Positions 15,822 to 32,682 of a stretch of 64,000 nt of DNA are shown in pieces. The translations under genes and the position numbers were made by a program. A model generated the notes under the pieces. It worked only from the letters and a program-made list of their open reading frames with translations. It was not told the origin of the DNA and made no database searches. This DNA comes from an uncultured Gammaproteobacteria bacterium (GTDB lineage Bacteria; Patescibacteriota; Microgenomatia; UBA8517). Position 1 is the first letter of the stretch, and each line of letters opens with the position of its first letter. Location: NCBI GenBank assembly GCA_964599625.1, contig CAZRGC010000001.1, forward strand, positions 51,019-115,018, written 5' to 3'.

Positions 15822-17111
15822 TCAATTACTGTAAAACCAATCCCATTCTGGGTTATCTACTTCTAAAATCTTACTCTTTAGCATTTTATACACTCCATCC
15901 TCTTTGATTGTTTGCCATGTGCCTTCGTAGTAATGGTAATCTACCTCGCCATCATTCCAATTTTTCGTTGAAAACTTAACAAATACTGTGTCGTCGGAGT
16001 TTTCAAATGGTTCGGTGTGAATGACATCAACATCTAGTATATCCGTGAACCTGTTTGTCCATTCCTCATAGTTGGTTTTCTTTAGATAATCGGTGCTTAG
16101 TAGATTGAATCCGTCCTGCATTCTTCTCGCCTTAAGATATGTGTAGAATGCCTCAACGGCTTTTTCTGGTGACTCTGAGGGATCTACTTGTATTTTGGTT
16201 ATATTTTGATCGGTAAAACTAGGAACAGCCGATCTTGCCCAGTCGCCGTCAATAAAAAGCGATAAACCCGCAAGACTAAGCGTGTTAATTCCTACGACTT
16301 GGCCACACTGATCTAATAGTGGCCCGCCACTCATGCCCTGAACCAAGCTAATATCCGTTTGAATGTAAGCCACAGGCATTTGTTTAGATTTTCTAAAATC
16401 CACAAATCTACCCTTAACAACAGTTGCATTGCCAACCAGATCAGTCCCCAAAGGATAGCCCGCAGCAATAAGCGGTTCATCAGCATGTAAGACTACACGT
16501 TCGGGTAAAGGCAAAACCATGTCTGGATATATATTGTCGGTAAATAGCACTGCCATATCCTCATCCTTGTTACCAATAATCTTATTAGGTGTGACAAAAT
16601 TCCCATCTGGGAAAATGATCTTGGGGCTTGGCTCGTCAGCTATAACATGGAAGTTAGTAATAACCTGATCGGGGGCAATAAAAAATCCTGTTCCTTCTGA
16701 ATACCCTCCAACTACTCGAACTACTGATTTTTGGATGGTATCTCTGGCTCCGATTGAACACAAAAATTTTCCATACCAGCCGTACTGCGTTCGCAGATAA
16801 TCGGCGATGACGAATAGGGAGGCTACCATGTAAGCAACAACACCAATGACAAACAATGATTTTAAGAAATTCTTTAGGCTTTTGAAGGGGTAAACGAAAG
16901 TTTCAAAAAAGATTTTGATCAGGGCAATAATAAATTTGATTGTGAATTTTACGATGTAGTAGGTGGTATAGGTTACAAGTTTGATGGGGAATTGATAAAT
17001 GGGGAATAGTAAGCGTTTGAAATAGGCCTTTAGCCGAGTTGTAGTATTTTTATAAGTATCCGAAATTTTTCGAGATAGCCTATCGAATTGTTTTTCAAAT
17101 ATGCTTATCAT
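15822..17111 (-). CDS. membrane-anchored trypsin-like (S1/DegP-type) serine protease
   Basis: N-terminal hydrophobic segments. Catalytic triad context: His in VITNFHVIA, Asp in EDMAVLF, Ser in GMSGGPL. About 130-aa C-terminal extra domain. Confidence 0.7.
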   Translation of the reverse strand: MISIFEKQFDRLSRKISDTYKNTTTRLKAYFKRLLFPIYQFPIKLVTYTTYYIVKFTIKFIIALIKIFFETFVYPFKSLKNFLKSLFVIGVVAYMVASLFVIADYLRTQYGWYGKFLCSIGARDTIQKSVVRVVGGYSEGTGFFIAPDQVITNFHVIADEPSPKIIFPDGNFVTPNKIIGNKDEDMAVLFTDNIYPDMVLPLPERVVLHADEPLIAAGYPLGTDLVGNATVVKGRFVDFRKSKQMPVAYIQTDISLVQGMSGGPLLDQCGQVVGINTLSLAGLSLFIDGDWARSAVPSFTDQNITKIQVDPSESPEKAVEAFYTYLKARRMQDGFNLLSTDYLKKTNYEEWTNRFTDILDVDVIHTEPFENSDDTVFVKFSTKNWNDGEVDYHYYEGTWQTIKEDGVYKMLKSKILEVDNPEWDWFYSN

Positions 17112-19591
17112 TTCGTTTTATTTGTAATGATCTGTTGCACGACTTGTAAGTCATTTTCATTAAACATCCTAAATCGTACAGAATTGTACTGATTATCACG
17201 GACTAAAATAGATTCTGGTTTTGATAACCCTTCATTTAGTATTTTTCTTTCCTCAGGTGTGGAGGAACCAAGTTCACCATATACCCAGTGATTTGCATAA
17301 TAATAAAATAACAACAATTCTCCATCTTCCCTTTTAATACTATGGTACGATCCTGCTCCACCTTTTGAGATGTATGCCTTACCATCGGGAAACGCTTTAT
17401 CAACCCACTCTGGAATAGTTTTTACTGCCTGTTTCACAAATTTACTCTGAACTCTTGCGAGTGTCTCTTCCTCCGTTTCGGGTGGTTTAGTAACTCTTAC
17501 CTTTACATCATCTACATCTTCTTCCTCACCCTTAACACCCCTCAAAACTTGGGAAAACCACTCAATTGCTGCCTCAGCTTCTCTTTGCAAAACAAAGTTG
17601 ATTTCCTTAATGTGTTTTACGGCATTACGGAAATCTTTAAGAGTAATGAATCGTTTTTCAGTTTCATACTTGGAACCAAAGAATTGCTCGAACTGATCCC
17701 AATTCTTTAGAATGAGGTTTGAGTAATCCATAATGTCGCATTGACACAGACGATCGTACGAATCCAATTTTTCTTCAGTGACAAAAGGATTCTTTCTCAA
17801 ATACTCGGCAATTTTTCCTTTAGCTTTTTCCTGTATATCCCCAGGAATTGCCTGATTCCAATAATCTTTTCCGAATTTGTTTGTAAGTTGGCTATTAATC
17901 AGAAGTCGCAATTTTAGTTCGATATCGTCCAACGCTTTGTTTGCATTAACTCCCAAAATTTGAATAATCTTGGAACCTGTTAGTCGCTCAAATTCCTTTT
18001 TGATTAATTCGGAACGTTCTTTGATAAACATTCGATAGTCGTCCTGTTGAATGGCATCTGAGTATTTAATGAGATGTGTTTCCAAAGTATCGCTAAACTC
18101 GGAATTTTCGCTTTGATAATGGGCAAAATAATCGCTTGGTTTCTGATCGAGAATATCTTTATTGAGTTCGGCAGGAATAAAACAGAAATTGGCTATTAAA
18201 TTTTCCCCACCAACTTTGTTACGTTGTAAGTAACGCTTCGGGAAAATGTGATGTTTCTCAGGGCTATTAAAACTTGAATAGTATTTATGATCCATTGGGA
18301 TAATGCCGTTTGCTTCAAAATGTCTAGGGTTTCTACTTGCCAACATACAGAAGATAGCGTTTCTAAGTGCGGATTTTGTACCAATAGTTGTAGTAGCTAT
18401 TTTGTCTTCATCCGCCGTAATTGTGAAATTGATTTTTACATCTTTGTTGTTCAACAATTTATCGAATATTTCTCTTCGATCCTCACCCATCTTGCTTTCC
18501 ATTGCCGCCGTATACCTTTCGCTTAGAGCTGCCTTCCAAAACCATTCATGTACTACGTCTGTCATATCCTTGGATAATGCTCGCCCATCTGTTTTGAAAT
18601 ACAAGTAAGCTAGCAAGGGGATGAAGGAAGGGTAAGGAGTAAATTCAAAGATTCGTACACCTAAGTTTGCAGATAGATGTTCAACAGATAATTCAATCGC
18701 ATTGGAAATTTCATCCCAATTGTCCTTTATCTCATCCCGTTTCAATTGCAATTGGTAAATTTTGCTGCAAAATCCTTTTAAGATCAGAGAAATGGCATGG
18801 GTGACAACCTCGGGAGTAATGTCTCCAAATCCTTTTGATGCAATTTTTTCTCGTAGTTCGTTGTATTTTTCTTTAAGATCGAAATCCTCACCCCAAGTAC
18901 TAGCAACTACCAAGTCGAATAGAGAAAGTTTTTTACCACCCTGATTGATACGTTCAAAGATAACACTCGCATTATTTAGTTCGACGTTGTATACAGTCAC
19001 AACGCTGAGAGGATAGGTGGTAAAAATCCGATGACATTCCATAAACACTTCCTGTCGTTCGGGAGACATTTTGCGAAACAATTGCATATGATCCTCTCCC
19101 AACACTTTGTATAGGGGGATATATCTGTCGCTTTCTCTCTTTACTTCAAATACTGATTGGTTACCATTGTCGTCGGGTTCTTTTTTGTAGTAATCCAAGT
19201 CTAGGCAGATTTGTGAACAGTCTACTAATTTTGTTTTATTGCCGTCCTTGAATTCAACTCTGATTCCATACCAAGCCGCATAAAGTGAGCAGATGCGTTG
19301 TTGCCCATCCAGGATGAATTTAATTTTTTCATCAACTCTTGGTTTGGGAGGTGTGATTCCAAGTTCAGGTAAGTCCCGATAAAAAAGGTTGTATTTGCCA
19401 GTAGTTTCCCAAAGGAAAAAACTACCGATTGGATATTCTTTGTAGATACTATCCAATAAAGCCACAATCTTGCTTCGTTCCCATACAAAATCCCTTTGAA
19501 ATCGAGGAACACGCAAGGTACCCTCTTTCAGGTATGTAAGTAGTGAAATGATTTGTTTATTCCCTTCGGATTCTATTTTTGGCAATTTCAT
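17108..19591 (-). CDS. GmrSD/BrxU-like type IV restriction-type enzyme (DUF262 + DUF1524)
   Basis: N-terminal DUF262/ParB-like motifs RFQRDFVW and LDGQQRICSL. C-terminal DUF1524 His-Me finger EKHHIFPKRYL...GENLIANFCFIPAELNKDI. Confidence 0.8.
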   Translation of the reverse strand: MKLPKIESEGNKQIISLLTYLKEGTLRVPRFQRDFVWERSKIVALLDSIYKEYPIGSFFLWETTGKYNLFYRDLPELGITPPKPRVDEKIKFILDGQQRICSLYAAWYGIRVEFKDGNKTKLVDCSQICLDLDYYKKEPDDNGNQSVFEVKRESDRYIPLYKVLGEDHMQLFRKMSPERQEVFMECHRIFTTYPLSVVTVYNVELNNASVIFERINQGGKKLSLFDLVVASTWGEDFDLKEKYNELREKIASKGFGDITPEVVTHAISLILKGFCSKIYQLQLKRDEIKDNWDEISNAIELSVEHLSANLGVRIFEFTPYPSFIPLLAYLYFKTDGRALSKDMTDVVHEWFWKAALSERYTAAMESKMGEDRREIFDKLLNNKDVKINFTITADEDKIATTTIGTKSALRNAIFCMLASRNPRHFEANGIIPMDHKYYSSFNSPEKHHIFPKRYLQRNKVGGENLIANFCFIPAELNKDILDQKPSDYFAHYQSENSEFSDTLETHLIKYSDAIQQDDYRMFIKERSELIKKEFERLTGSKIIQILGVNANKALDDIELKLRLLINSQLTNKFGKDYWNQAIPGDIQEKAKGKIAEYLRKNPFVTEEKLDSYDRLCQCDIMDYSNLILKNWDQFEQFFGSKYETEKRFITLKDFRNAVKHIKEINFVLQREAEAAIEWFSQVLRGVKGEEEDVDDVKVRVTKPPETEEETLARVQSKFVKQAVKTIPEWVDKAFPDGKAYISKGGAGSYHSIKREDGELLLFYYYANHWVYGELGSSTPEERKILNEGLSKPESILVRDNQYNSVRFRMFNENDLQVVQQIITNKTK

Positions 19592-19593
19592 AT

Positions 19594-20322
19594 TTATTTA
19601 ACCTTTTTGATAAAACCTAAATATTTATCTACATCCAAAGCAGGAACAGAGCCAAGTTGTCGAAGTTGTTCAATTAGTTTGAGTAAAAAGAACGCTAGTA
19701 TTGTGGCTCCTTTTTGTTCAAATATTTCTTTCTCGTTTACAATCTTTATTCCGTAGCTTAAGCAAACGACAAAAGATAATGCCGAACCTAATTTAACGTT
19801 CTCGTATGAGGGCTTACTTCCGTGTTCTTTGGTTAATATCCCTCCAAATATATTAAATGGTTCCTTTTTGTTTTTTCCGAGAATATGAGCGAAGCTGGCA
19901 GACGTTTTTTTCAATTCTTGAACACTTTTAAGTTTTTTGATTGCATATTCAAGGTTCGACTTGTTTAATTGTTGTTTGACTTCAAAAACGGCATAAACTC
20001 CCTCCGATGGTATATAAACAACATTTTCTCCCCGAAAAATAAATGGGGTGAAATGCCTATCATAAATAATGATGTCAATTTGTTCACTTATATTTCCTTT
20101 ATGATCTACCACAAAACCATTGTCCACGCTGTACCTTTCTGGTAAATAATTTCGTAGGAGTCCTATCCAATTCAGTTCCGTTTCGTTGCCCTTTGCCGAT
20201 GGATGATATATTTCATCAATCTTGCTCGACAATTTAAGTCTCATTTCTTCATCGAGAGCATTAAATAGTTTTTGCATGTTGATTTTTTTAGACATAGTTT
20301 TTACCAAACAATTTGATTCCAA
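19594..20322 (-). CDS. PD-(D/E)xK restriction-endonuclease-fold protein, NucC-like candidate effector
   Basis: EQIDIIIYD ... AVFEVKQ gives a D ... E-x-K arrangement. Size about 233-242 aa. The real start is probably the in-frame ATG at 20295 (MSKKINMQ), which removes the 22-nt overlap with the upstream NTase gene. The NucC resemblance is from memory of that family, not a search. Confidence 0.4.
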   Translation of the reverse strand: MESNCLVKTMSKKINMQKLFNALDEEMRLKLSSKIDEIYHPSAKGNETELNWIGLLRNYLPERYSVDNGFVVDHKGNISEQIDIIIYDRHFTPFIFRGENVVYIPSEGVYAVFEVKQQLNKSNLEYAIKKLKSVQELKKTSASFAHILGKNKKEPFNIFGGILTKEHGSKPSYENVKLGSALSFVVCLSYGIKIVNEKEIFEQKGATILAFFLLKLIEQLRQLGSVPALDVDKYLGFIKKVK

Positions 20323-21074
20323 TTTGAGTTTTTTATCGCTTCTCTTGCTTTATTTTTTACAGCACTTTTTTCTGTTTGTGTTAATAGATCAGAAAGGATA
20401 TTTCCCGAGTTGGCAGGATCGACTAAATAGGAATCTAAAGGATTATCGTTGTATTTAGCCAGTTCCGTTAAAACATGCCACGCATTGTTTCCTAGTTTGT
20501 CAATTCCAGTAGGGTAAAATTTCAGGATGTTAGTAACTATTAAGTATTCAAGATAGATTGATGGAAATTCAAGTTTGTTAAGTTCTCGCCACACCTTAAG
20601 GATTTTTATTTCATTCGTCCTACCCGAATTAGAAATGTCGTCTATATGTTTTTGAATATTAGTCTGTTTCCTCGTGTCTTGCTTAGAAACATATAGCCAA
20701 TGATCGTTAGTGTATCCAGGTTGTTTCCGTGCAGGTGTAACGTCTACCATTAAGCCGTTAAGGTTTAATCTTATGGAAACATTTTGTTTTCTAACACCAC
20801 TATAAATACTACTGATTTTTGAATATAGTGATTCATAAATCCCTTTTAATCCACCAGTATTTTCATTGCAATTGCTAGTTAATGAAACGAGATAATCTAC
20901 ATCTGACGCAATTGATATAGCTGTACCTTTAGCTCGTGATCCTGAGTCCAAAATATCTAAATAGCAAGTATTTGCCCATGTCTTTAGAATTGATTTCAGA
21001 GTGACAATTGAACTCGAATAGGGTGATAAGTTTCGTGCCTGGTATTTTAATAAAATTTGTTCAAGATATGTCAT
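20301..21074 (-). CDS. CD-NTase/SMODS-like nucleotidyltransferase
   Basis: SGSRAKGTAISIASDVDYLV matches GS...GT...SDhDh. Downstream LMVDVTPAR matches the third-Asp DVhPA motif of the OAS/cGAS/CD-NTase families. Confidence 0.5.
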   Translation of the reverse strand: MTYLEQILLKYQARNLSPYSSSIVTLKSILKTWANTCYLDILDSGSRAKGTAISIASDVDYLVSLTSNCNENTGGLKGIYESLYSKISSIYSGVRKQNVSIRLNLNGLMVDVTPARKQPGYTNDHWLYVSKQDTRKQTNIQKHIDDISNSGRTNEIKILKVWRELNKLEFPSIYLEYLIVTNILKFYPTGIDKLGNNAWHVLTELAKYNDNPLDSYLVDPANSGNILSDLLTQTEKSAVKNKAREAIKNSNWNQIVW

Positions 21075-21075: not shown

Positions 21076-24000
21076 TTATTTTTCTTCTACAATCGCAATT
21101 TCCTCTGGAGTCAGATCGTAAAGTTCATAAATTTTTTGATCAATATATGTTTCTAATTTACGTATTTCTGTATTTTCAAGATTTATGTTCTTAGATAATT
21201 TCAATATTTCATCCACAAGTTCTATGATAATATTCTGTTTAGCTGGCGGCTTCGGAATGATAAGTGAACCCCTTACCGAGGAAGGATATGTGTGTGAAGT
21301 AGATCCCTGTAAACTTTCTGTAGCAAATCTTTTTCTGTAATAAAATTGCTGCAATTTTGACATCAGAAAAGCTAGCGCATATTTAAGATCTAATTTTTCT
21401 TCTAATAGCTTGTAACCTGAAAAATTAGTTTTTAACTCAGATCCATTAAGCGAAGCGTAGGGGACTACTAATACATTCCCATCATCTGTAAACATTTTTG
21501 AGTTATCATATGCAGCAGCAATTCTATGCCCTTTATCAGATACTTTTCGAATCGCTATTTTTTCATTTTCAAACAACTCTGGACTTCTCGATCCATACAT
21601 ATCTTCTTTTCGATAGTCTAGCCATAAACCTCGATAAGACACATGCCATCTATGGACATCCTTTCCCTCAAAAAACCTTTTTGCATTGCCAACAGGAACG
21701 TTGTTTACGACATCACTTTTACTAAATTTACCCTTTACTTTACTTGAGGGTTGAACACCATAGTTCACATAAAAATAGTTGCCAAATCTTGCAGATTTAT
21801 TTTCAAGTTTTTTGAGTAGATCTTCTTCAGTATTATTAATTGATAATACAAACTGGTGTGTTGGTTGTTGTAGCCATAATTTATTATTTACTGTATTTAA
21901 CAGAACTATTTCACCATTTGTTTCTTTGTTGCCAAAAATATTTATTGAATAGTTTTTTAGTACTCTCTTGGTGGCTACAAATACAGTTGTTCTTCTAGAA
22001 ACATTTTCAAAAACATTAATATCTGTAAACTCTAAAATATTGTCTAATGCCATGTTGTTTAATAAAAACTCTCTTACAGCTTTAGCGTATTTTTCTTTTA
22101 ATATTGGGTTAGGGACGATGAATGATATTGCCCCATTGAAGCCAAGTATTTTATGTCCAAGCGCAACAAATGCGACATATAAGTCCCAGTGTCCAGTTAA
22201 AAATGGATATTCCTTTAATCCAGCTTTAATAATTTTTCTCATTTCTGGATCGTCTTTTTCCATTTGCCACGCGCTCACATACGGTGGATTTGCTATAACC
22301 ACATCAAATCCACCTTTGTTTTCAAATACCTCGCTGTAATTTAATTTCCAAAGGAAAAAGGGACGGATGTTGGCTTTTTTATATTTTTCGACTTGCGTCA
22401 TCAATGATTCTTTTCCTTGTTCCCGAAGTGTGGCCTCGATAAGTTCCCAAGTTAGGGATTCTATTCTTTTTTTGATCTGATCTTTTTCTTTTTTATGTGA
22501 TGTATTGAAAAATTCTTTTTGTAACCGTTTCAAATCTTTAGCCTTTTCTTTAGCTTCACTTTCCTGATCGAATAGTCCCGTGTTCTCAATTGTCGGTTTT
22601 GGTTTGTCGGTTAATTTTTTTAACGCCTTATTATTCTTTTGTAACTCGGCCTCGATTTGTTGTTTTTTGATTCCTGTAAACTCTCCCTTTTGGTACAGTT
22701 GGACAAACTCCCGTGACAACTCACTTATTTTTGCCTTCAAACTTTCGATTTGGGCCGTATTGTCAAACACTGATTTCGTGAACAAATCCTCGTCAAATAG
22801 TTTTATTCCTTCAAACTCTTCCAATAGGCTATTGCCTTGCATGATTTTGTAATCTAGGTTTGGTAGTGGCTTGATTTTTTTAATATCTTGTTCGTCAACG
22901 ATGAGCGATAGCCATAAACGGAGTTTGGCTATTTCAGTAGCCCCAGGATCGATGTCTACCCCGTATAGGCTATGTTGGATCGCATGGTGTTTGAACGCAT
23001 ATATTGATCTGTCGCCATCTACAAAGTAGCTAGAAATGGTGTTTCGTACCCGTATAATCTCTGTCATCATCCCTACCAAAAATGCCCCCGAACCGACGGC
23101 GGGATCGCATACACGGATACTTGCCAATGCGTCATCTATTTGTTTGGCGTTATTTCTAATACTTTCTGGTAATTTATAGGAATAGGTATCGGTTTCCTCG
23201 CCGATCTCGGTAACCCTTGTGTCATGTTCTACTGCTGCCTCGCCAATTTGAACCAATGTCTCAATATCTTCCTTTTCAGCCTTTCCCTCTAGTTCCGTTG
23301 CCAAATAGTTCACCAAACTTTCTTGGCACATGTAGTGGACAATCTCACGGGGTGTATAGTACGTGCCTTTTGATTTTCTATCCCTAACCTCTAGTAGGTT
23401 CTCAAAAACCTTACCTAACATCTCGGGATCGACGGCTACCTCTCGCTCTAACGGCTCATCTTCTTTGACTGTAAAATTGTATCTGTCAAAAATATCTAAA
23501 ATCCCGTCTCCAGTATCACCTTCTTTTGTGGTGTTTTTATTTGAAAATAATTTATTAGGCAAATTTATTTGAGTGTCAGTCCATGAATAACCACTAATAG
23601 GATCAAATAATCCTCCGTTGAGGAAAGGTATTTTACATTTGAACAAAGGGTTAAAATGATCGACATCCGATCTATCCCTAGCTAGAGCGTCGTAAAAAAG
23701 TGGTTCAAGAACGTCGTTGAAAAAATTTTCGTAAGCAAGAACTTTTCCATCAAACAAGTCTCGCAAAAATGTTTTCGATCCAGTACCCCAATCTTTACCC
23801 ATTTCTACTCCGAACCAGCCCTTCTTCTGTAAAAAGTATAAGAAAACAATTTGTCCAAGCAATTTTTTAGTAAAATCTATAGTCTCAATATTTTTATCTT
23901 TGAAATCGTTTTCAATCTGAGGATCGGCCTTGACGATTTTATCCAATGCCTCTTTTGTTTCTAGGAATAACTGTTTGTATTTCTCGAAAAACTCTTTGGT

Positions 24001-24588
24001 AACAACCTCGACGCTAAACACTTTTTCCAAATCGGTTAGGGTAGGGGGAGCATCTTCTTTTATAAGTGTCGGTATTAATTGTTTTTGGGCCGTATGAGTG
24101 TTTTCGTTTTCGCCAACCAAGAAGGAAAATCGTTTGGCAGGGGTTAATTCGGTGATTGTTTTAAGTCGCCCTGCATCAGATTTGCCCAATCGGTATTCCA
24201 TTTTGACTAGCGATAACCGCCAGTCGGTAAGATTTGGTGGCACAAAAGCAACTATTGCCGCATCTTTTGCGTCTCTATTTTTAAGATAATCCGCTACAAA
24301 ATTTCTTTGCGTAGTTCTAGCTCTTTCGAGAGTTTCATTTTTTTCAAGGTAGACAGCAAGTATATCTATTTTGTTGTTATCAGAATCAGTGAAAGTTCCA
24401 AAGCGTTCATATGTTTTTATTGTAGGGTTAGTTTTTTTGAATTTATCTTTAACATATCCATGAGCATGGAATGCTTTTGTTTCGTCGAATTTCCTAAAAA
24501 GATTTTTTGTGAAGATCAAGAAGCGATCCCGATCGTAAGGGTTTTCAAATGTACTTTTGACTAGGTTGATTGCTGATTGTTTGTTCAT
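21076..24588 (-). CDS. large gamma-class N6-adenine DNA methyltransferase (PglX/Eco57I/DrmMI-like)
   Basis: Motif I VCDPAVGSGAFLVGMM. LYGVDIDPGATEIAKLRLWLSL. Motif IV VIANPPYVSAW. About 450-aa N-terminal and about 350-aa C-terminal (TRD-like) extensions. Confidence 0.85.
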   Translation of the reverse strand: MNKQSAINLVKSTFENPYDRDRFLIFTKNLFRKFDETKAFHAHGYVKDKFKKTNPTIKTYERFGTFTDSDNNKIDILAVYLEKNETLERARTTQRNFVADYLKNRDAKDAAIVAFVPPNLTDWRLSLVKMEYRLGKSDAGRLKTITELTPAKRFSFLVGENENTHTAQKQLIPTLIKEDAPPTLTDLEKVFSVEVVTKEFFEKYKQLFLETKEALDKIVKADPQIENDFKDKNIETIDFTKKLLGQIVFLYFLQKKGWFGVEMGKDWGTGSKTFLRDLFDGKVLAYENFFNDVLEPLFYDALARDRSDVDHFNPLFKCKIPFLNGGLFDPISGYSWTDTQINLPNKLFSNKNTTKEGDTGDGILDIFDRYNFTVKEDEPLEREVAVDPEMLGKVFENLLEVRDRKSKGTYYTPREIVHYMCQESLVNYLATELEGKAEKEDIETLVQIGEAAVEHDTRVTEIGEETDTYSYKLPESIRNNAKQIDDALASIRVCDPAVGSGAFLVGMMTEIIRVRNTISSYFVDGDRSIYAFKHHAIQHSLYGVDIDPGATEIAKLRLWLSLIVDEQDIKKIKPLPNLDYKIMQGNSLLEEFEGIKLFDEDLFTKSVFDNTAQIESLKAKISELSREFVQLYQKGEFTGIKKQQIEAELQKNNKALKKLTDKPKPTIENTGLFDQESEAKEKAKDLKRLQKEFFNTSHKKEKDQIKKRIESLTWELIEATLREQGKESLMTQVEKYKKANIRPFFLWKLNYSEVFENKGGFDVVIANPPYVSAWQMEKDDPEMRKIIKAGLKEYPFLTGHWDLYVAFVALGHKILGFNGAISFIVPNPILKEKYAKAVREFLLNNMALDNILEFTDINVFENVSRRTTVFVATKRVLKNYSINIFGNKETNGEIVLLNTVNNKLWLQQPTHQFVLSINNTEEDLLKKLENKSARFGNYFYVNYGVQPSSKVKGKFSKSDVVNNVPVGNAKRFFEGKDVHRWHVSYRGLWLDYRKEDMYGSRSPELFENEKIAIRKVSDKGHRIAAAYDNSKMFTDDGNVLVVPYASLNGSELKTNFSGYKLLEEKLDLKYALAFLMSKLQQFYYRKRFATESLQGSTSHTYPSSVRGSLIIPKPPAKQNIIIELVDEILKLSKNINLENTEIRKLETYIDQKIYELYDLTPEEIAIVEEK

Positions 24589-27500
24589 TCACTTATTAGA
24601 TATTCTGACAATATAACTTCCCTTGGCCCTGCTACCTGAGCCGAACTTTCAGCCAGAGTTTCTTTGAAAAACTCCGAGGGAATACTGACTTTGAGAATCG
24701 ACAATAGCTTTAATGGGTTGAATTTTTCACCTAATTCTTTATTTAGTAGTTTGAGTAAGTCCTTGGCAGTCCGTTTTGGCAATGCCCCTTCCTCTAAAAT
24801 CCTAATAACACTATTGATATATGCCTCGTCCTCGTCTGTAAAACCTTTGAAGTATTTAATCTCTTTAGATCGGAGTATTTTGACTATTTGAACCAAACTA
24901 TCTCGGCCTTTTTTGGATTGAACCTCCTGTGCCTCTTCTGTCGTTGTTTCGACAAACGCCTGTTTGTTCATAGCTAGTAGATCGTAGAAATCCTCGCCGA
25001 TATTTTCCCGTTTGGTATCTTTGTTAACCTCCAATAGTTTTGCTGCTGTAATGAAGTCTAGTTCGTTGGCTTCCTTGTCTGCCGAATAGAACTTTTGCAA
25101 TTTGCCCTTACGGAAAAATGTCAGCAGGCTATTATGTTTGCCGTCGCTATATTTTCTTGCGGTTCTGGCTTTTTTAGGTAGTCTTTTGATCGTTTCAAAC
25201 AGATCTGGATTGTTATCCCGAATATCACGAATGATATGTAGATATTTCAAATCGCTCTCTTCGCTCTCATCCTCGCCAGTAATCGTTTCCTTAGATGTAA
25301 GTTTTAACCAAAGATCGTGGGATTTAATTTCCTCACCTTCGGTTAGTAGTTTTGCATCTGCACCAAGTAGTTCAATAAATGCTTCAATTTTTGCTTCGGC
25401 TGCCTCGTTTAATTTGATCTGATCGTTTGATTGTTGTGTTGGGAAGAAATTGTAGGTGTAAATCTTTTCGTGTTTAGTATCGACTCGATTGATACGCCCT
25501 GTCCGTTGCATCAGCCTGGTTGGATTCCAGGGAATATCATAATTGATGACGCAATTGGATCGATGTAAATTGACACCCTCTGACAGAACTTCTGTTGCGA
25601 TCAGGATTCGGTAGTCATCGTGTGGAAATCTGGCTTGAGCGTCAAAATTCTCAATGACTTTTTCTCTAATGACTGCCGATGATCCTCCGTGATAGGCCAA
25701 TACCTGATCGGGGAATTTCTGGCCAAGGTTTTTTTCTAGATACTCGGCGGTTTCCTTTGATTCGGTAAAGATAATAAGTTTGTTGTCTTGTAATACCTTT
25801 TGGCTTGAAAGTGCATCAATAAATTTTGCTAGTTTAGGATCTCGATTGATCCGACGCCACATTTTTGCAATATCTCGCAAAATATTTAAGTCGTTTTCCA
25901 AATCTGTCTTGAATGTATCCTCAAATTCTGTCGATGAGTAGCGTTGCGCCTTATCTTCATCTATTAATTTTTGAATGGCTACTTCATCATCATTGTCTAG
26001 TAATTCAAATATCTTACTGATATGTTTTTTGCTGACATAAACATTTCCTTTATCAAATTCGGCAAGGAAACTCTCGTATGAGGATATAAACCGATCCAAT
26101 GTATTCCTAAATGCAAAGAAGCTACTTTCAAGCCGTTTAACTAAAAGGATTTTCATAAATCGGCCCATGTTCTTTTGTCCTTGTTCTTCACCTTGGGGAA
26201 TATCGCCTTTGTAGTACAGAAGTGGCATATAACGGGCGTATTTGAATTTTTGGGCGATCAACTCAATTGTCTTGGTGAAAATTTCATTCTCTTCATCATC
26301 TAATTCGTAAAACAATGGCTCGGGATCGGCCACATCGGGGAATCGTAGTTTTTGTTGTGCCAAATCTTTGCCAAAATACTTAACAATTTCCGATCTGGTT
26401 CGACGAACCATCAAATACTTAAGTACCTTTTCCCGAATATCGCTTGCGTTTTGACGTACTGTTTCCAAATACTCACTGCGGTTAGTTTTGCGATCCAAAT
26501 CTTTAAGTTTTTTCTCCAGTCCCGAGAAAAACATTTCAAGGTTGGGTAGGTTTGGAATAGTACTCTTTTTGGCCTTTTGGAATAGTTTAATCTGGCTCAA
26601 TATATCCTTGGGTGAATTGTTGTAGGGTGTGGCCGTAACCAAAATGACTCTTTTCCCTCGGCAAATCTGGGCTAGTTTTTCATAGGTAACATTATCTTCT
26701 GTTCTAAATCGGTGGGCTTCGTCAATAAACACATTTTTATATTTATCGGTGCCTCTCTCTGCTAATTTTTCTAATTTTCCTAATGATTCAAAATCTGCCG
26801 ATACCTTAAAATCTGAAAACACGTTTGGCCATGAACCTGGGTTATCACGATCGAGTAGCACAGGTGGGGCAATGACTAAATTTCGGCCATCAAGTTGATT
26901 GGCAAGCATGGCAGAAATGTATGTTTTACCCAAACCAACAACATCGGATAGGAAAACACCCCCATACTCTTCTAAAATCTTTTTAGCGTTCAATACGGCT
27001 TGTTCCTGATACTCTAGTTTTCTGAATTTCTCTGGTGTGTATTTATAGAATACGTCTTCGGTACGGCTAATCTGATCCTTGAAGTATTCGTATAGGAATT
27101 TTAAGTAGAGTTGGTAGGGAGTAATTGTATTGTTTAGCCATGTCTTGTCATTGACTGTTTCAATATATTTTTCGGACACATCAACGGAGTCTTTCCAAAG
27201 ATCGTTAAATTTATCCTGTGCGAATTTATGATCTGAAGCAGTCTTTAGTTCAACGTTGAATTCTAGATTGTCAGCTAGTCCTTTTTGGGAAAAATTGCTT
27301 GATCCCGTGATAACTCTCCCAACGTCCCGATCTCCCTCTTTGAATGTGAGAATGTATAGTTTGGCGTGGATGTTTGCCGTAGGATATGCCCGAATCTCTA
27401 ACTTGCCGCTTTTAATCCATTCAATGAATTTTTGAACACCTTTTTCGATTGTTGGGGTGTCTTCCGAATCTTCAAGCTCCGATGCTATTAAATTGGAAAA

Positions 27501-27773
27501 CTCTTCTTTAGCCTCTACATGGGAAAAACTCAAACTTAATTGCTCTTCGGCTGCTCTAATGTTTTCAAGAGTATCTCTTCCTGTGCCTATACCTATTAGA
27601 ATTCTGATTTTTTCGGTGTTTTCGAGTACAGGGTAGAGCTTATAAAACCCGCTAGAGTAGAAATAACCAACCAGTACATCAAAATATCGGGTGTCTTTTA
27701 TCAAAACACGGAACCGCTCCAAAAGACTTTGATTGTTCTCGTTGGTTATGAATGTTAAATCTGTATTATTCAT
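24585..27773 (-). CDS. PLD-family nuclease domain fused to SNF2-family helicase
   Basis: N-terminal HKD motif HAKLYILTF...GRVITGSSNFS. SNF2 motifs GLGKTYISAML, DEAHRFR and LVTATPYNN. Helicase-C motif QRTGRINRV. Confidence 0.85.
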   Translation of the reverse strand: MNNTDLTFITNENNQSLLERFRVLIKDTRYFDVLVGYFYSSGFYKLYPVLENTEKIRILIGIGTGRDTLENIRAAEEQLSLSFSHVEAKEEFSNLIASELEDSEDTPTIEKGVQKFIEWIKSGKLEIRAYPTANIHAKLYILTFKEGDRDVGRVITGSSNFSQKGLADNLEFNVELKTASDHKFAQDKFNDLWKDSVDVSEKYIETVNDKTWLNNTITPYQLYLKFLYEYFKDQISRTEDVFYKYTPEKFRKLEYQEQAVLNAKKILEEYGGVFLSDVVGLGKTYISAMLANQLDGRNLVIAPPVLLDRDNPGSWPNVFSDFKVSADFESLGKLEKLAERGTDKYKNVFIDEAHRFRTEDNVTYEKLAQICRGKRVILVTATPYNNSPKDILSQIKLFQKAKKSTIPNLPNLEMFFSGLEKKLKDLDRKTNRSEYLETVRQNASDIREKVLKYLMVRRTRSEIVKYFGKDLAQQKLRFPDVADPEPLFYELDDEENEIFTKTIELIAQKFKYARYMPLLYYKGDIPQGEEQGQKNMGRFMKILLVKRLESSFFAFRNTLDRFISSYESFLAEFDKGNVYVSKKHISKIFELLDNDDEVAIQKLIDEDKAQRYSSTEFEDTFKTDLENDLNILRDIAKMWRRINRDPKLAKFIDALSSQKVLQDNKLIIFTESKETAEYLEKNLGQKFPDQVLAYHGGSSAVIREKVIENFDAQARFPHDDYRILIATEVLSEGVNLHRSNCVINYDIPWNPTRLMQRTGRINRVDTKHEKIYTYNFFPTQQSNDQIKLNEAAEAKIEAFIELLGADAKLLTEGEEIKSHDLWLKLTSKETITGEDESEESDLKYLHIIRDIRDNNPDLFETIKRLPKKARTARKYSDGKHNSLLTFFRKGKLQKFYSADKEANELDFITAAKLLEVNKDTKRENIGEDFYDLLAMNKQAFVETTTEEAQEVQSKKGRDSLVQIVKILRSKEIKYFKGFTDEDEAYINSVIRILEEGALPKRTAKDLLKLLNKELGEKFNPLKLLSILKVSIPSEFFKETLAESSAQVAGPREVILSEYLISE

Positions 27774-27795: not shown

Positions 27796-27993
27796 TTACA
27801 CCTTAGGGTGTCTAGATATATATGCCTCTATGTCCGCCTTTCTATATCGACGATCTCCAACACCTCTACGTGTACCAATTCTTACCGCTTTTAGGATTCC
27901 TTGTCTATCCCAACGCCTAAGTGTTTGCGGTTTAACATTCAGGATTTTTGCTGCCTGATTTAATGTTAGTAGTTCCTCTAGTTCTGAATTCAT
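27796..27993 (-). CDS. excisionase/AlpA-family HTH DNA-binding protein (paralog of 13285-13512)
   Basis: LTLNQAAKILNVKPQTLRRWDRQGILKAVRIGTRR aligns residue by residue with the other HTH protein. It is the first gene of the 12-kb minus-strand operon. Confidence 0.6.
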   Translation of the reverse strand: MNSELEELLTLNQAAKILNVKPQTLRRWDRQGILKAVRIGTRRGVGDRRYRKADIEAYISRHPKV

Positions 27994-28329
27994 ACTAATT
28001 GTCTTTAATTGTACTAAATTGCAGGGAAAAAAGGTAGATTATCGGGTAGGGAAAATGGGAAGGGGATATATAATCCTTATCGGCGTTTTTTGGTAGTGTG
28101 CAAATGTGTAGACTCACAACTACACATTTAGCCTTAAATCGGAAGACTACATAGACTATATATAGTAGTTGGCTAGTATCCCAACATATATTTATTAGCT
28201 ATAACTAGGGATATTAATTGGTATCAGCTATACTAGTAGAAGATTCCGTCCAATTTCGATTGAGTATTTTTAAGTAAAATCGAGGGGAGGGAGTAGTAAA
28301 ATTGAAAATGTGGGGTAAGTGGATCGAAA

Positions 28330-28376
28330 GCTAGCATCATGCCAGATAGGCATGTGTGGTACCCTATATGCTAGCA
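28330..28376. promoter_or_regulatory. nested palindrome: GCTAGCAT ... ATGCTAGC enclosing CATGCC-agata-GGCATG and GGTACC
   Basis: Perfect 8-bp inverted repeat with a 31-nt spacer that contains a 6-bp stem hairpin. It lies between the island end and the 3' end of the MoxR-like gene. Confidence 0.3.
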
Positions 28377-28413
28377 TTTCAAAAAGTGCCATTTTCCCAA
28401 GAAGGCCCCTTAA

Positions 28414-30102
28414 TTATTTGCGAGGAACTATCAAAGGTAATGCAACAACTTTTTGATGTGTTGCAGTCTCTTCAAACGATATTCCCCTATACGATCTATC
28501 ACTTTCTTTTCTTACAACCGAGCTTCTATTTTGCTCGCCCTCGTAAGTTGTGGATGTTCGGAAATGTAAGTTTCTTTCTGTCATAAGTGTTGACAGTGTG
28601 TTTTCCCCTGATTTATCTTCTTCTTCAAAGATGGCAATATAGTCTGCAGCTGACCCAAGCATGATTCTGAGACCTGATACGTCCAGATCGTTTGCCCATT
28701 CGTTTATAAGCTGCATCTGGTCATTTGTATTCATGTCTTTAGTATTCATTATGTTAAACGCTATTCTCTGGGGAATCGCCACATCACCCCTTATTCCTTT
28801 TTTATGCCGGGAGAAGTTTATCTCGCCAGTAATTTCAACTCCTTGGGCCTCCATCTCACTCAATGAATTCCCATCTAAGCTATATATTGTAAATCCCATT
28901 CTTTCCAACTCTTCTCTTTGTTCAGTGCTAAATCTTGGAGTTTTGTCTTTTTTTTCTCTGCTCTCGGCAAGGCCTTGCCTTTGTGAAAAGGATGGTCTTG
29001 GCGGCTTGTATACTACTTGCTCAATTGCTTCATTAAGCTTGTTGCGGTCGCTTACACTTTCGAGTTTGTTGGCATAATAATAGCGCAATGCCTGCTGCAT
29101 GGTTTCGGTTATATCGCCGTCATAAAACCTGGCTATGTAATCCCTGACTCTGGTTCTTTCCATTTGATCATCAAAGCTGAATCTCTGGGGCTGGTCAGCC
29201 CCGACTTTTCTTTTTTCTGCTTGCAATTTGGCGTTGCTATGAAACTCCTTATATAGTGCCAAGATTTCCTTTATTCCCGGTATTTCGGCAATTTCTTCTC
29301 TTGTGAGCGCTTTATCTCTTGATTCATATCTTTCAATATTCTTAGCTGCTCCCGGTTTTTCCATAGGTGCAAGGCCAAAGGCTGCATCAACAGCATATGC
29401 AAACGTATCTTTGGGAAGTCCAGCCGGGGCTTTCATGTAAACCCATCTTCTTAATTGAGCTGGGTCAAGGGGTTCCTTGCCAAAAAATCCCTGCCCAGGA
29501 GTGTTGCCAAGAGCAATCAGTTTTGTAATTCCTCTGTCTGTTCTTATTATTTCTGTACCTTCTTTTTCTTTAATCACAACTCGACCGTTGGACTGAAGGG
29601 CGTCATGGACCTCGTGAAGTCTTACAAGTATATTTGCTTGAGCGGCGTTAAACTCATCAAGAATAATAATTTTAACTTTTCCCGGCTCTGGCCTCAATCC
29701 GCTTGTTATTTTTCCATCTACAAATATATGTTCAGGGTCGTTATTTGTCTTTCTGTTTGGGTTTGGTACCCAACGGCCCATCAACTCCTCTGTGTCGGAC
29801 TGGCCGTTTAGGTTGTTGTAGTGAACTTCCCAATTAAGTTCCGCTGCCATTTTTTTAATAGTTGTAGTTTTTCCTATACTAGTGCCCCCCTCGATATACA
29901 TAGGGTCTCCTAAAAGCAAAGAGACAGCTACTTCTCTTTGAAACTGGAGAAAAAATTCATCAGCATAATATTCTTTTGGGGGATCGGGGACAAATACTTC
30001 TGATGCCACTTTTGCTCTGGGGAGTCTTACTCCCATGTAGTCCACATGATTTTCGGCGACAAATACGCCTACATCAGTCCTTCGTTCAGTGTAGCTGTCC
30101 AT
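28414..30102 (-). CDS. MoxR/AAA_5-type AAA+ ATPase with about 250-aa C-terminal extension
   Basis: Walker A GGTSIGKTTT. Walker B KIIILDEFNAAQANILVRLHEV. Last gene of the minus-strand operon. Confidence 0.65.
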   Translation of the reverse strand: MDSYTERRTDVGVFVAENHVDYMGVRLPRAKVASEVFVPDPPKEYYADEFFLQFQREVAVSLLLGDPMYIEGGTSIGKTTTIKKMAAELNWEVHYNNLNGQSDTEELMGRWVPNPNRKTNNDPEHIFVDGKITSGLRPEPGKVKIIILDEFNAAQANILVRLHEVHDALQSNGRVVIKEKEGTEIIRTDRGITKLIALGNTPGQGFFGKEPLDPAQLRRWVYMKAPAGLPKDTFAYAVDAAFGLAPMEKPGAAKNIERYESRDKALTREEIAEIPGIKEILALYKEFHSNAKLQAEKRKVGADQPQRFSFDDQMERTRVRDYIARFYDGDITETMQQALRYYYANKLESVSDRNKLNEAIEQVVYKPPRPSFSQRQGLAESREKKDKTPRFSTEQREELERMGFTIYSLDGNSLSEMEAQGVEITGEINFSRHKKGIRGDVAIPQRIAFNIMNTKDMNTNDQMQLINEWANDLDVSGLRIMLGSAADYIAIFEEEDKSGENTLSTLMTERNLHFRTSTTYEGEQNRSSVVRKESDRSYRGISFEETATHQKVVALPLIVPRK

Positions 30103-30104
30103 GG

Positions 30105-30518
30105 TTATTTTCTAAAAGTAAGACCAACCTTGTCCATGATTAGAAATCCGTCGTTTTCTGATTGTTCTAAAGCGCTCTTTGTAAATATCAGAAGTACGCC
30201 AAATTTTCCTCGGTTAGGTTTTATTACTTCAGGGCGCATCTCGTCTTCGTTGAATGTCTCAATTTGTCCTGTGGGGAATTGAACTAAGATATCATAAACT
30301 TTCTTGGACAATTTTTCGTTTACAACGAAAAAGGTACTCTTTTCCGCTGCAATATTTTCAAAGAAACTGGTATCGGTTTGGGATTCAGCAAAACCATAAC
30401 CTGTCAGAGCACCGCCGATTTGCTCTATTTCATCGGTTCCATCTACAACTGCCAGACTCACTTCATTCTGGCCACTTGTACAGCTCAAGAATTGTTCAAA
30501 ATTTTTTATCTCTTTCAT
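30105..30518 (-). CDS. hypothetical protein sandwiched between the vWA and MoxR genes
   Basis: 137-aa ORF, 2 nt before the MoxR gene and 13 nt after the vWA gene. Confidence 0.4.
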   Translation of the reverse strand: MKEIKNFEQFLSCTSGQNEVSLAVVDGTDEIEQIGGALTGYGFAESQTDTSFFENIAAEKSTFFVVNEKLSKKVYDILVQFPTGQIETFNEDEMRPEVIKPNRGKFGVLLIFTKSALEQSENDGFLIMDKVGLTFRK

Positions 30519-30531
30519 AATACTTATTACA

Positions 30532-32640
30532 TCATACGTAACTCCCGACTATTTTGCGAATTGCATTTGCCAACTCGTCTGGAATCTGTTGGACGTTTGA
30601 AGCTATAAAATAATTTTCAAAATATTCTTTCATAAATCCGGTTCCCGGACCTATGCCGCCACCTATGACTTTTTGATTCCTGCCGGCTTTGGCTTTTTCT
30701 ATTTCTGTCTTTAAATCAAAAGCACGCCTTGGACTGTCGCTTGGCAGATCTGGTCTGCCGTCGCTCAGAACTATCATTACTTTTTCTTTTTGGACTTGCC
30801 TTGCCAGCCTATCAGAACTTTGGTTAACTGCCCAGCCTGTGGCGGTGCCCCATTTCCTGTTACGTTGTGAACGGATTGGTATTTCCAGCATATCCTCCAT
30901 TTTTACACGGATATCATCTGACATCTTTTGGCCGAATTCCTGAAAAACAAACATGTCTGTATTGTATGCAACAACCTCCAAATTTATTGAAAGCCTGTTG
31001 AGAACTTCGGTCAATACAACAACCCCTTTAAATGTTTCCAGAATTTTGTCATCCTCAAGCATTGAAGTTGTTACATCTACAAGCAAAGTAAATGCGTAAT
31101 CTTTTTCCAGGGGTAGCTTTCTTCTTTGCCATGCCTTACTTTCCATAACAGAAACGCCGCGGACTTTCTCTTGGATTCTCTTGGGAATGTCTACCCGCCT
31201 TCCGGTTTTGTAGCCGGTTTGCAGATGACTTTCTCGTCTTTTGGAGAACAGTTCTCTTAGGTCGTTTTCTAATTTGTCTATTATGGGCATAAGGTCCGTA
31301 CGGATCCTTTCGTACTTTGTTTCGTCTGTGCCGAATATTTCCAGAATTTTTTGTTTGAATCTTTTGGTTTCTTTATCTATCTCTTCCTGAGATTTTTTGC
31401 CTGTATTTTCATCGTTTTGTTTTGCGTTCCCCTCGGTTCCATTGCCGCCTTTGGCTTGTGACTCCGAATCGTCTTTTGGTGCATTTCGCATCTCGTCTGG
31501 ATTTTCGTCCATCATTCCTTTGATTTCTCTGTTTATATCTGACTCCAAAATCTTCATTTTTTCTCCTGCCCTTTGCCTCAATTCTTCCTGTTTGTGTGCA
31601 GGAAGTGATTTCAGATGTTCTCTTAATTTCTGCTTCAATTCTTCGGAAAGCGATTCAAGATCTATGGGTGTTGTGGTATTTTCTTCTTCACTTGTCTCCT
31701 GTCTTTCGTTTTCAGACATTGCTTTCTCCATTGCCTCGACGAGTTGTTGAAGCTGTTCTTCTGTTAACTTTTCTGCAACATCTTGGGGAATCGGTTGCTC
31801 AGATCCTTGCTGTGACTTCGAATCTTCCATCATGTCATTTAACATTTCGGATACACCTGCATCTTCTAGATCTTTTTTGATTAGTTCTTCAAATTCCGGC
31901 CAGACCTGACTATCTATCGTCTCTCTTGCACCCCGTGCATATTTTTTAATGACATCCCCACTTTGGTCGGCTTCTTTTTTGGTGGGATATTTCCACCAGG
32001 TGTCATGTGCGCCTTTTTCAATTTTTGTCATAGCACGGGAAACATCCTCACTCAAAGTTTCGGGTGGTTGTCCAGGAGTTTCTCTTATCTCACTGTACCA
32101 CTTGCGTGTCAGCTCATTACCTGCTTGTATAAAACGAGGGATGAATCCAAGTTGTTCGTGGGCTGTTGCTGTTGTTTTTGATTCAACAATTTTTCCTGCC
32201 CTTTCTGCTTCTTCAAGATGTTCGCTGATTTTGGGATAGCCCTCTGCTACAAAATTAGTTGATCTTGCACCTTCCAAGACATTGGTAAGATACTGATAGC
32301 CTGGTTTCTCCCATTGGTCTTTTGGTATATCTCCTAGTCTGGAAATCCTAAGTCTGCCGCTTTGAGTGGCAACTTTGTAGCGTAATGAATCGAGGCTTTC
32401 GTTAACAAGGTCGTTGGGGTCTGCAATTATTTTTGTTCCTTGGACGTCACCTTCCCATCCGGATCCTGGGTCTCCGATTTCCACAGGAACACTAAAATTC
32501 TTGCCTACAAAGTGAGCCAAGGAGGAGAGCATGTGTCTTCTTTCACCAATAGTCGCACGTTCTTGCGAGGTAAAGTTTTCAAGAGGGTCTTTGCGTAAGT
32601 TTTCGGATTCTTGTTCGGGTCTTTCGGCTTTTTCAGGCAT
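30532..32640 (-). CDS. vWA-domain protein with long acidic coiled-coil linker
   Basis: C-terminal vWA: TLLVDVTTSMLED (DxSxS), then VMIVLSDGRPD. Central region rich in E and K (EELKQKLREHLK...). Confidence 0.7.
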   Translation of the reverse strand: MPEKAERPEQESENLRKDPLENFTSQERATIGERRHMLSSLAHFVGKNFSVPVEIGDPGSGWEGDVQGTKIIADPNDLVNESLDSLRYKVATQSGRLRISRLGDIPKDQWEKPGYQYLTNVLEGARSTNFVAEGYPKISEHLEEAERAGKIVESKTTATAHEQLGFIPRFIQAGNELTRKWYSEIRETPGQPPETLSEDVSRAMTKIEKGAHDTWWKYPTKKEADQSGDVIKKYARGARETIDSQVWPEFEELIKKDLEDAGVSEMLNDMMEDSKSQQGSEQPIPQDVAEKLTEEQLQQLVEAMEKAMSENERQETSEEENTTTPIDLESLSEELKQKLREHLKSLPAHKQEELRQRAGEKMKILESDINREIKGMMDENPDEMRNAPKDDSESQAKGGNGTEGNAKQNDENTGKKSQEEIDKETKRFKQKILEIFGTDETKYERIRTDLMPIIDKLENDLRELFSKRRESHLQTGYKTGRRVDIPKRIQEKVRGVSVMESKAWQRRKLPLEKDYAFTLLVDVTTSMLEDDKILETFKGVVVLTEVLNRLSINLEVVAYNTDMFVFQEFGQKMSDDIRVKMEDMLEIPIRSQRNRKWGTATGWAVNQSSDRLARQVQKEKVMIVLSDGRPDLPSDSPRRAFDLKTEIEKAKAGRNQKVIGGGIGPGTGFMKEYFENYFIASNVQQIPDELANAIRKIVGSYV

Positions 32641-32682
32641 TCACATTAGTTTACACCGTTAACCAATTAAACTGTGTGAGAA

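Follow-up and report, generated by a model that had tools for sequence, protein, structure and literature searches.

The 64,000-nucleotide stretch of DNA analysed here (the window) covers positions 51,019 to 115,018, forward strand, of contig CAZRGC010000001.1 in GenBank assembly GCA_964599625.1, an uncultured Gammaproteobacteria bacterium with the GTDB lineage Bacteria; Patescibacteriota; Microgenomatia; UBA8517. Two adjoining genes on its minus strand probably make up a restriction-modification (R-M) module. The first open reading frame (ORF), at 24585 to 27773, encodes a 1062-aa helicase-nuclease, the proposed restriction/translocase subunit, in which an HKD domain of the phospholipase D-like (PLD) type precedes an SNF2 motor. 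The second, at 21076 to 24588, encodes a 1170-aa gamma-class N6-adenine DNA methyltransferase with a C-terminal specificity domain of the TaqI_C type, proposed to serve in both modification and target recognition. An earlier interpretation made from the letters alone, the sequence-only reading, had placed the genes at the same coordinates and had described the HKD domain as fused N-terminally to the SNF2 motor. Pfam matches (PLDc_2 and SNF2-rel_dom) and a motif scan bore out the fusion within a single 1062-aa protein, together with the rest of the domain architecture and the motifs that had been quoted. ORFs this long with such matches cannot have arisen by chance. The two genes meet at an ATGA stop/start overlap of 4 nt (24585 to 24588, minus strand; ...AGT GAA TGA / ATG AAC...). 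This overlap, also claimed earlier, is real and is common to four close relatives (loci L081, L082, L083, and L085), and the junction varies across the family.

The helicase-nuclease has a single HKD/PLD nuclease domain at aa 95 to 193 (27195 to 27491; all features of the pair are on the minus strand). It matches Pfam PLDc_2 (7.8e-9; 35.9 bits against a cutoff of 27) and RE_NgoFVII (1.8e-5), and it contains the stretch HAKLYILTF...GSSNFS (aa 136 to 162), with HxK at 136 to 138 and GSSN at 157 to 160. The first ATPase lobe, of the SNF2/ResIII type (aa 253 to 470; 26364 to 27017), matches ResIII (1.5e-8) and SNF2-rel_dom (2.5e-8; 33.8 bits against a cutoff of 24.9), and carries Walker A GLGKT at residue 280, DEAH at 351, and TATP at 380. 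Lobe 2 (aa 650 to 764; 25482 to 25826) matches Helicase_C (7.1e-23) and contains motif VI, QRTGRINR, at residue 756. The presence of motifs I, II (DEAH), III, and VI and the SNF2-rel_dom match place the motor in the SNF2 family. A conserved C-terminal region (aa 790 to 1062; 24588 to 25406) completes the protein. Across 17 homologues from many phyla, H136, K138, G157-S158-S159-N160, G280-T284, D351-H354, and Q756/R757/G759/R760/R763 are invariant. A motif scan found just one HKD motif in the chain; therefore, an active nuclease site would need a dimer. Searches of the PDB, run with both the single helicase sequence and a helicase profile, returned generic SF2/SNF2 C-lobe matches only and no PLD-helicase structure.

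The methyltransferase begins with a family-specific region (aa 1 to 480; 23149 to 24588) made of an alpha/beta domain and a helical domain. The AdoMet-binding motif I, DPAVGSGAF (aa 495 to 503; 23080 to 23106), and the catalytic motif IV, NPPY (aa 767 to 770; 22279 to 22290), are each at least 95% conserved. Motif I lies ahead of NPPY and the target-recognition domain is C-terminal, which is the gamma-class order. This hypervariable target-recognition, or specificity, domain spans aa ~850 to 1100 (21289 to 22041), with the TaqI_C match at 972 to 1091; the other Pfam matches are to Eco57I (2e-31), N6_Mtase, and MmeI_Mtase. In the PDB, the half of the methylase that holds the catalytic and specificity domains had profile matches to CamA (2.3e-42), M.BseCI, PglX, and TaqI. 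Between motifs I-III and motif IV lies a charged, variable helical insert (aa ~600 to 750; 22339 to 22791). It is rich in lysine and glutamate, sits inside the methyltransferase fold, and could be a dimerisation or partner-binding arm.

We then asked where the nuclease of such a system lies. The best PADLOC model for the methylase is REase_MTase_IIG PDLC03596, a REBASE-derived "Type IIG" model that fits it from end to end (2.1e-243; 808.9 bits) although no nuclease motif is intact. Like Type IIG enzymes, the methylase joins a methyltransferase (Eco57I/N6_Mtase) and a specificity domain (TaqI_C) in one polypeptide. However, Pfam detected neither a nuclease domain nor MmeI_N in it, and no intact PD-(D/E)xK motif was found in its N-terminal region. 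A candidate site in the N-terminal alpha/beta domain, D68-x7-D76-x-L, lacks the catalytic lysine, and D76, E83, and K84 all fall outside the set of positions with at least 95% conservation. An AlphaFold 2 (AF2) model of aa 1 to 480 (pLDDT 79.8) gave no Foldseek match below 1e-3 in the PDB. We therefore rejected membership in Type IIG. With neither an intact nuclease motif nor MmeI_N in the methylase, the nuclease activity must be supplied by the partner, whose HKD domain is on these sequence data the only credible candidate. The authors who described lactococcal homologues drew the same inference, namely that the restriction domain absent from the methylase is provided by the PLD-SNF2 protein (PMC6098607). 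The methylase is unlikely to be a complete single-chain Type IIG R-M enzyme with the HKD-SNF2 protein as an accessory or independent neighbour. Type IIG and IIL enzymes (MmeI, Eco57I, and DrdV) and PglX of BREX also differ from the present pair, which has an obligate HKD-SNF2 partner, no intact nuclease motif in the methylase, and no PglZ or BrxC.

The two genes travel together across a wide range of organisms. At least 7956 proteins are homologous to the helicase, and full-length homologues at 62 to 69% identity come from more than 20 phyla. The fusion is thus common, and its pairing with a methylase was published in 2018 and 2023. A methylase homologue lies downstream on the same strand in 73 of 80 helicase-side loci, again from more than 20 phyla. 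Four of the seven exceptions have less than 600 bp of downstream flank and two have less than 1.8 kb; only the seventh, L038, is clearly without a methylase, and it retains a methylase remnant. From the opposite side, we collected 31 IMG/VR loci by an alignment scan with the methylase N-domain. All 31 carry an HKD-SNF2 homologue, which is full length in 29; in L086 and L100 only a C-terminal piece of it is left. The sequence-only reading had offered a lack of co-occurrence in related loci as the result that would overturn it, and both surveys returned the opposite. The pairing holds down to 25 to 33% identity, where distant helicases keep PLDc_2, SNF2, and Helicase_C. The nearest named homologues of the pair are in Patescibacteria, which are candidate-phyla-radiation bacteria. 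The pair is present on plasmids of Lactococcus (including the 15-kb pJM1F), Parabacteroides (Bacteroidales), and Thermus; in plasmids of Prevotella, cyanobacteria, and haloarchaea, the match coordinates put both genes close together. The pairing is therefore not due to chance: the two genes are a widespread, paired unit.

No third gene recurs with the pair. When all flanking ORFs within 10 kb were clustered over the 80 loci, the next commonest family was Schlafen/AlbA_2, in 11 loci, and none of DrmA/B, PglZ/BrxC, or DUF499/DUF3780 was recurrent. Across the family the junction is an overlap in 11 loci, a spacer of 0 to 30 nt in 32, and interrupted by inserted genes in 26. A survey of the loci by gene content counted 27 with inserts, among which are genes for NYN, RhuM, AbiEii plus DUF6922, Fic/DOC, Schlafen-AlbA_2, and Bro-N proteins, and in more distant relatives Fic, KilA-N, and sigma-70-like proteins. 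Such inserts are the usual hitchhiker set within Type I R-M operons. The methylase N-domain matched 5539 representative clusters, 1381 of them at E <= 1e-30, and it had no match among the isolated phage genomes of INPHARED. The "viral" matches in IMG/VR thus probably stem from prophages or other mobile elements.

Two loci show one half of the pair in decay. In L038 (10001 to 14800), an intact, motif-complete helicase is followed by a Bro-N gene and then by the last ~250 methylase residues. In L086 (7000 to 11486), an intact 1161-aa methylase follows the last ~66 residues of a helicase, next to an ORF that by eye resembles a fragment of a cytosine methylase. An unpaired helicase would do no harm if the nuclease depends on its targeting subunit for activity; L038 and L086 fit the picture proposed below, each as a single case.

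The two proteins also vary together, except in the specificity domain. Helicase distances correlated with those of methylase aa 1 to 600 (Mantel r = 0.68, p = 0.001), whereas they did not track those of the specificity domain (r = 0.16). Mean pairwise identity is 62% over aa 1 to 600 and 21% over the specificity region (aa ~850 to 1100). In an alignment of 45 homologues, column conservation is 0.58 to 0.82 over aa 1 to 600, 0.14 to 0.37 in the insert (aa ~600 to 750), and ~0.28 to 0.31 over aa ~850 to 1100; the insert has a gap fraction of 0.36 to 0.71 and varies in length. The specificity domain differs even between close relatives. The helicases of the window and of L083 are 97.4% identical, but the last 400 residues of their methylases are only 23 to 38% identical, and the domain is likewise replaced with respect to a relative whose helicase is 89% identical to that of the window. 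We conclude from these comparisons that the specificity domain has been swapped between near-identical relatives. The conserved C-terminal region of the helicase (aa 790 to 1062) is a candidate contact surface for the methylase.

A related arrangement is found in Lactococcus cremoris. On pJM1F (locus L117; 5425 to 10230), an inverted half-gene annotated as a "TaqI-like C-terminal specificity domain" and an Mpi-family invertase come right after the methylase, a layout that points to phase-variable specificity. Such loci figure among the sites of programmed inversion in a 2023 survey (PMC9881135). In the window, a repeat search over 11 to 29 kb for invertible specificity cassettes or att sites found only short matches at chance level; unlike pJM1F, this locus has no shufflon.

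We compared the pair with the known systems that combine a methylase with a helicase or nuclease. The pairing itself has been noticed in passing. In 2018 it was described on L. lactis plasmid pLd8, where the PLD-SNF2 protein was taken as the missing R subunit and the domains were called DISARM-like (PMC6098607). In 2023 the same architecture appeared as a "Cj0031-like Type II RM CDS with adjacent PLD-SNF CDS", with the PLD domain assigned to CDD model cd09178 and the PLD-SNF2 protein again suggested as the source of restriction (PMC9881135). In the searchable literature, we found only such passing mentions and no name, census, or experiment for the two-gene HKD-SNF2 plus methylase family. The lactococcal systems (pLd8 orf33/orf34 and pJM1F) share the two-gene architecture, and the pJM1F helicase has PLDc_2, SNF2, and Helicase_C. 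They differ in that their helicases are only ~28% identical to that of the window, they match another PADLOC IIG model (PDLC03601), and some have invertible target-recognition cassettes, which the window lacks.

The closest characterised helicase-nuclease is MtsD of MANTIS (formerly Gao_RL/Gao_29; the BREX-related BR type 2), a dimeric PLD-SF2 effector without which MANTIS does not restrict unmethylated DNA, and this likeness favours an R-M function for the pair. In both systems an N6-adenine methylase sets the specificity and an N-terminal HKD/PLD domain is fused to an SF2 ATPase in the effector. The best NCBIfam match of the helicase is NF042964, "phospholipase D-like anti-phage protein" (1.2e-46; 159.5 bits against a cutoff of 1100), and PADLOC PLD_Helicase also matches it (2.9e-27); both models presumably represent MtsD. 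However, MANTIS has four genes, and its DUF499 AAA+ loader MtsA and small MtsB (DUF3780 in PMC12839542, DUF3870 in the MANTIS preprint) are absent from the window and from ~100 related loci. The window methylase, for its part, has a large family-specific N-terminal region. Assignment to MANTIS was rejected on the absence of MtsA and MtsB.

DISARM class 1 likewise has an SNF2 ATPase, a PLD nuclease, and an Eco57I-family N6-adenine methylase, and PADLOC DrmD (8.8e-42) and DrmMI (2e-31) match the pair. However, in the present system PLD and SNF2 form one polypeptide, and the DrmA helicase and DrmB (DUF1998) were not found in the window. The curated scores are low, 145.7 bits against a cutoff of 610 for NF038317 (DrmD) and 80.6 against 950 for NF038318. 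DISARM was thus rejected, and the identification of the helicase with DrmD does not hold. BREX types 1 to 6 were rejected as well: the PglZ phosphatase and BrxC/PglY are absent from the window, and the methylase scores 76.9/500, 54.1/900, and 43.8/400 bits against PglX of BREX-1, BREX-6, and BREX-2. The earlier description of the methylase as "PglX/DrmMI-like" is right at the level of the superfamily. It goes no further, given the BREX-1 PglX score and the 106.8 bits for DrmMI, which compare with 808.9 for the Type IIG model. The sequence-only reading was correct that DrmA/DrmB and the BREX genes PglZ/BrxC are missing from the window, as Pfam and PADLOC showed.

These likenesses raise the question of whether the pair is an incomplete DISARM class 1, BREX, or MANTIS system whose missing component (DrmA/B, BrxC/PglZ, or a DUF499 AAA+ loader) lies elsewhere in the genome, or else a non-functional remnant. 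The homology at superfamily level (DrmD, DrmMI, PLD_Helicase, and NF042964, above) is in keeping with this, and so is the fact that the MANTIS methylase needs MtsA and MtsB. However, none of the missing genes is in the 64-kb window or recurs within 10 kb of the 80 related loci, and the scores are far under the curated cutoffs. Both proteins are under strong purifying selection, with 62 to 69% identity across phyla, and small plasmids such as pJM1F carry the pair as one mobile unit. We consider an incomplete system improbable.

In its logic the pair most resembles Type III and Type ISP enzymes (EcoP15I; LlaGI and LlaBIII), in which a methylase with its target-recognition unit directs both modification and restriction by an ATP-dependent helicase-nuclease. 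Like Type III systems, it consists of two genes for a methylase and an SF2 helicase-nuclease, with ResIII matching the N lobe. Its nuclease is an N-terminal HKD/PLD domain rather than PD-(D/E)xK or Mrr, its motor is of the SNF2 type, and its methylase is gamma-class with a C-terminal TaqI_C domain rather than a beta-class Mod. Type III was rejected because a beta-class Mod with a central target-recognition domain and a Res with a C-terminal PD-(D/E)xK nuclease were not matched. Type ISP was rejected because there are two ORFs and an HKD nuclease here, in contrast to a single polypeptide holding an Mrr nuclease, helicase, methylase, and target-recognition domain.

The pair heads a mobile defence island, in a seven-gene operon. 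An HTH_17/MerR gene (27796 to 27993, minus strand; 65 aa; Pfam HTH_17, 4.4e-14) lies 22 nt upstream of the helicase. A 50-aa partial translation of it matched PADLOC mad1 (3.4e-10), the first gene of the methylation-associated MADS system. The gene was called in the identical contig L085, is directly upstream of the helicase in L082 and L085, and is displaced in L081. Judged by sequence, it is a candidate controller of the pair or operon, or a candidate excision factor of the island. Downstream, a 257-aa SMODS cyclase (PADLOC Cyclase PDLC00803, 1.6e-82) starts 1 nt past the methylase stop and is followed by a DUF6602/NucC-like nuclease effector (PDLC00745, 6e-75). These two genes span 19594 to 21074 (minus strand) and form a minimal CBASS-like pair with no HORMA/TRIP13 or Cap2/3 genes. 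Next is an 827-aa fusion of GmrSD_N (DUF262) and a Swt1-like HEPN domain (17108 to 19591, minus strand; PADLOC PDC-M55C, 2.1e-45; HEC-05, 2.3e-41; PDC-M34B for the HEPN part), in which the DUF1524 nuclease half was not detected. The last gene encodes a 429-aa membrane-anchored, trypsin-like protease (15822 to 17111, minus strand) with a hydrophobic N terminus and a Trypsin_2 match, and it overlaps the GmrSD-like gene by 4 nt. In PADLOC this protease weakly resembles protease modules of retron, Lamassu, and Hachiman-associated proteins. The methylase is thus not the "only partner" of the helicase at this locus, contrary to the earlier claim; the two-gene core is evident only from the relatives.

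The spacings within the operon are -4, +1, about +2 to +5, and -4 nt. At one end of the island, a large serine recombinase (11708 to 13276) lies 3 nt from the end of SecA and is adjoined by small helix-turn-helix (HTH)/DUF5659 genes (11708 to 15470). The far end (27796 to 28400) comprises the HTH_17 gene and ~400 bp without coding sequence. Between these ends lies a low-GC island of roughly 16 kb, with a GC content of 0.33 to 0.39 over 15 to 28 kb against ~0.41 elsewhere; a repeat search found no flanking repeats. Serine recombinases also lie next to the module in L081 and L083. A promoter and terminator scan of 15 to 28.6 kb gave counts at or below the shuffled expectation, and an Rfam scan of the window found no family and no tRNA. 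Apart from the pair and SecA, no window ORF exceeds 830 aa, and none of the remaining large ORFs gave a PADLOC match or a relevant Pfam match.

Outside the island, the upstream region (28414 to 33711, minus strand) encodes an AAA_5 (MoxR/dynein-type) ATPase, a 137-aa ORF, a 702-aa VWA protein, and a weak HipA/PI3K-like kinase, a set of the MoxR-VWA type with no PADLOC assignment. GC content rises to 0.50 to 0.56 at 6000 to 8000 and at 54000 to 58000, against 0.41. The ORFs there (for example 54381 to 56345, 56370 to 57290, and 6223 to 7149) have no Pfam match, as is the case for many other ORFs of the window.

The seven genes could in principle be one integrated, multi-layer system, with the pair wired to the cyclase/NucC, GmrSD-HEPN, and protease genes. 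The tight spacings, the lack of detectable terminators, and the same seven-gene order in L083 (helicase 97% identical) and the identical contig L085 are in line with this. However, in L081 (helicase 89% identical) the pair and the GmrSD-like gene are kept, but the cyclase/NucC genes are replaced by two unrelated genes (285 and 763 aa) without a Pfam or PADLOC match. The GmrSD-like gene, kept in both L081 and L083, is thus a more constant companion of the pair than the CBASS-like genes are. The cargo genes recur in none of the 80 distant loci, and the pattern fits an island of independent cassettes. Integration of all seven genes is very unlikely.

Alternatively, the HKD-SNF2 protein might act alone as a SauUSI-like Type IV enzyme that attacks modified DNA, and the methylase might be an orphan, regulatory, or anti-restriction protein. 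SauUSI also has an N-terminal single-HKD PLD nuclease and an SF2 ATPase, and it is a dimer that translocates with ATP before it cleaves (MANTIS preprint). The PLD-plus-SF2 architecture matches SauUSI as well as MtsD, and in L086 the methylase persists without a helicase. However, SauUSI reads modified cytosine through a C-terminal domain of its own and targets methylated DNA with no methylase. In the window protein, Pfam detected no DUF3427 or SRA-like reader, and the modelled C-terminal region has the look of a simple helical bundle; a SauUSI-like assignment was rejected on these grounds. A nuclease directed at methylated DNA would gain nothing, or would harm its own host, by being obligately linked to a methylase and co-varying with it. 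This alternative is very unlikely. It bears on the suggestion in the sequence-only reading that the system is "methylation-dependent", a term that is ambiguous: the evidence favours restriction of unmethylated, not methylated, DNA.

A housekeeping role outside defence, in which an epigenetic methylase accompanies an SNF2 ATPase of the RapA or chromatin type, is scarcely credible: the helicase C lobe does have weak similarity to RapA, but the pair lies in a low-GC island with a serine recombinase, is patchy across phyla at 62 to 69% identity and found on plasmids, has a hypervariable specificity domain, and keeps the company of defence genes and R-M hitchhikers.

We consider it likely that the pair is a self-contained, horizontally mobile, ATP-dependent R-M module that follows a Type III/ISP-like logic with parts related to the BREX/DISARM/MANTIS group. 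The reading of the pair as a minimal restriction-like module, first made from the letters alone, is to that extent supported. By analogy with its CamA, PglX, MmeI, and MtsC relatives, and from its own architecture, the methylase, with one catalytic and one specificity domain, would recognise a short asymmetric site, methylate one adenine (N6) per site, on one strand, and so mark host DNA. It would also target restriction, with its conserved N-terminal 480 to 600 aa holding the HKD-SNF2 partner, as the co-variation suggests. At unmethylated sites, the SNF2 motor would hydrolyse ATP and move along double-stranded DNA. Because each protein has one HKD motif, two copies must pair to cut; this could occur in a pre-formed dimer, as in the MtsD structure and as reported for SauUSI, or when two converging complexes meet, as in Type ISP. 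The analysis supports this scheme through the domain architecture, the intact catalytic motifs, the obligate pairing, the lack of a third conserved gene, the swapped specificity domain, and the mobile island; methylation, protein contact, translocation, cleavage, and phage defence are predicted from sequence and analogy.

Several points weigh against this R-M module. Physical contact between helicase and methylase is deduced from co-variation alone, which shared ancestry may also produce, and the model of the helicase C-terminal region resembles helical bundles only. REBASE-derived models label the methylase Type IIG. The MANTIS methylase cannot bind DNA without its AAA+ loader, and MtsD, a dimer in its structure (MANTIS preprint), shows no cleavage in vitro, where cleavage by MANTIS is not yet reconstituted; two proteins may thus be insufficient. 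The searchable literature holds no experiment on any member of the family.

A more specific version of the R-M module can be put forward tentatively, as a proposal with somewhat less than an even chance. The pair may represent a distinct, unnamed class of ATP-dependent R-M, amounting to a "split Type ISP" whose nuclease is of the PLD type and whose motor is of the SNF2 type. The N-terminal 480 aa of the methylase would do the job of the AAA+ loaders (MtsA and BrxC), loading the enzyme on DNA and recruiting the nuclease directly. Such a class would extend over thousands of lineages of bacteria, including the candidate phyla radiation, and archaea, and would have been mis-filed as stand-alone Type IIG enzymes plus "helicase-related proteins".

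The system is built from known parts and had already been noticed in the literature. Its swappable specificity domain could be a source of new methylation specificities. If two proteins suffice, the pair would be the minimal form of the defences that combine a methylase with a helicase-nuclease (DISARM, BREX, and MANTIS), simpler than MANTIS in having no AAA+ loader. If the split-ISP proposal is true, it would offer the simplest experimental model of self/non-self discrimination by hemimethylating, BREX-like systems. Defence censuses probably count thousands of these loci as single-gene Type IIG systems and miss the partner. The finding does not reveal a surprising new principle; its value is as a minimal model of hemimethylating helicase-nuclease defences and as a correction of the "Type IIG" label that is widely and wrongly applied.

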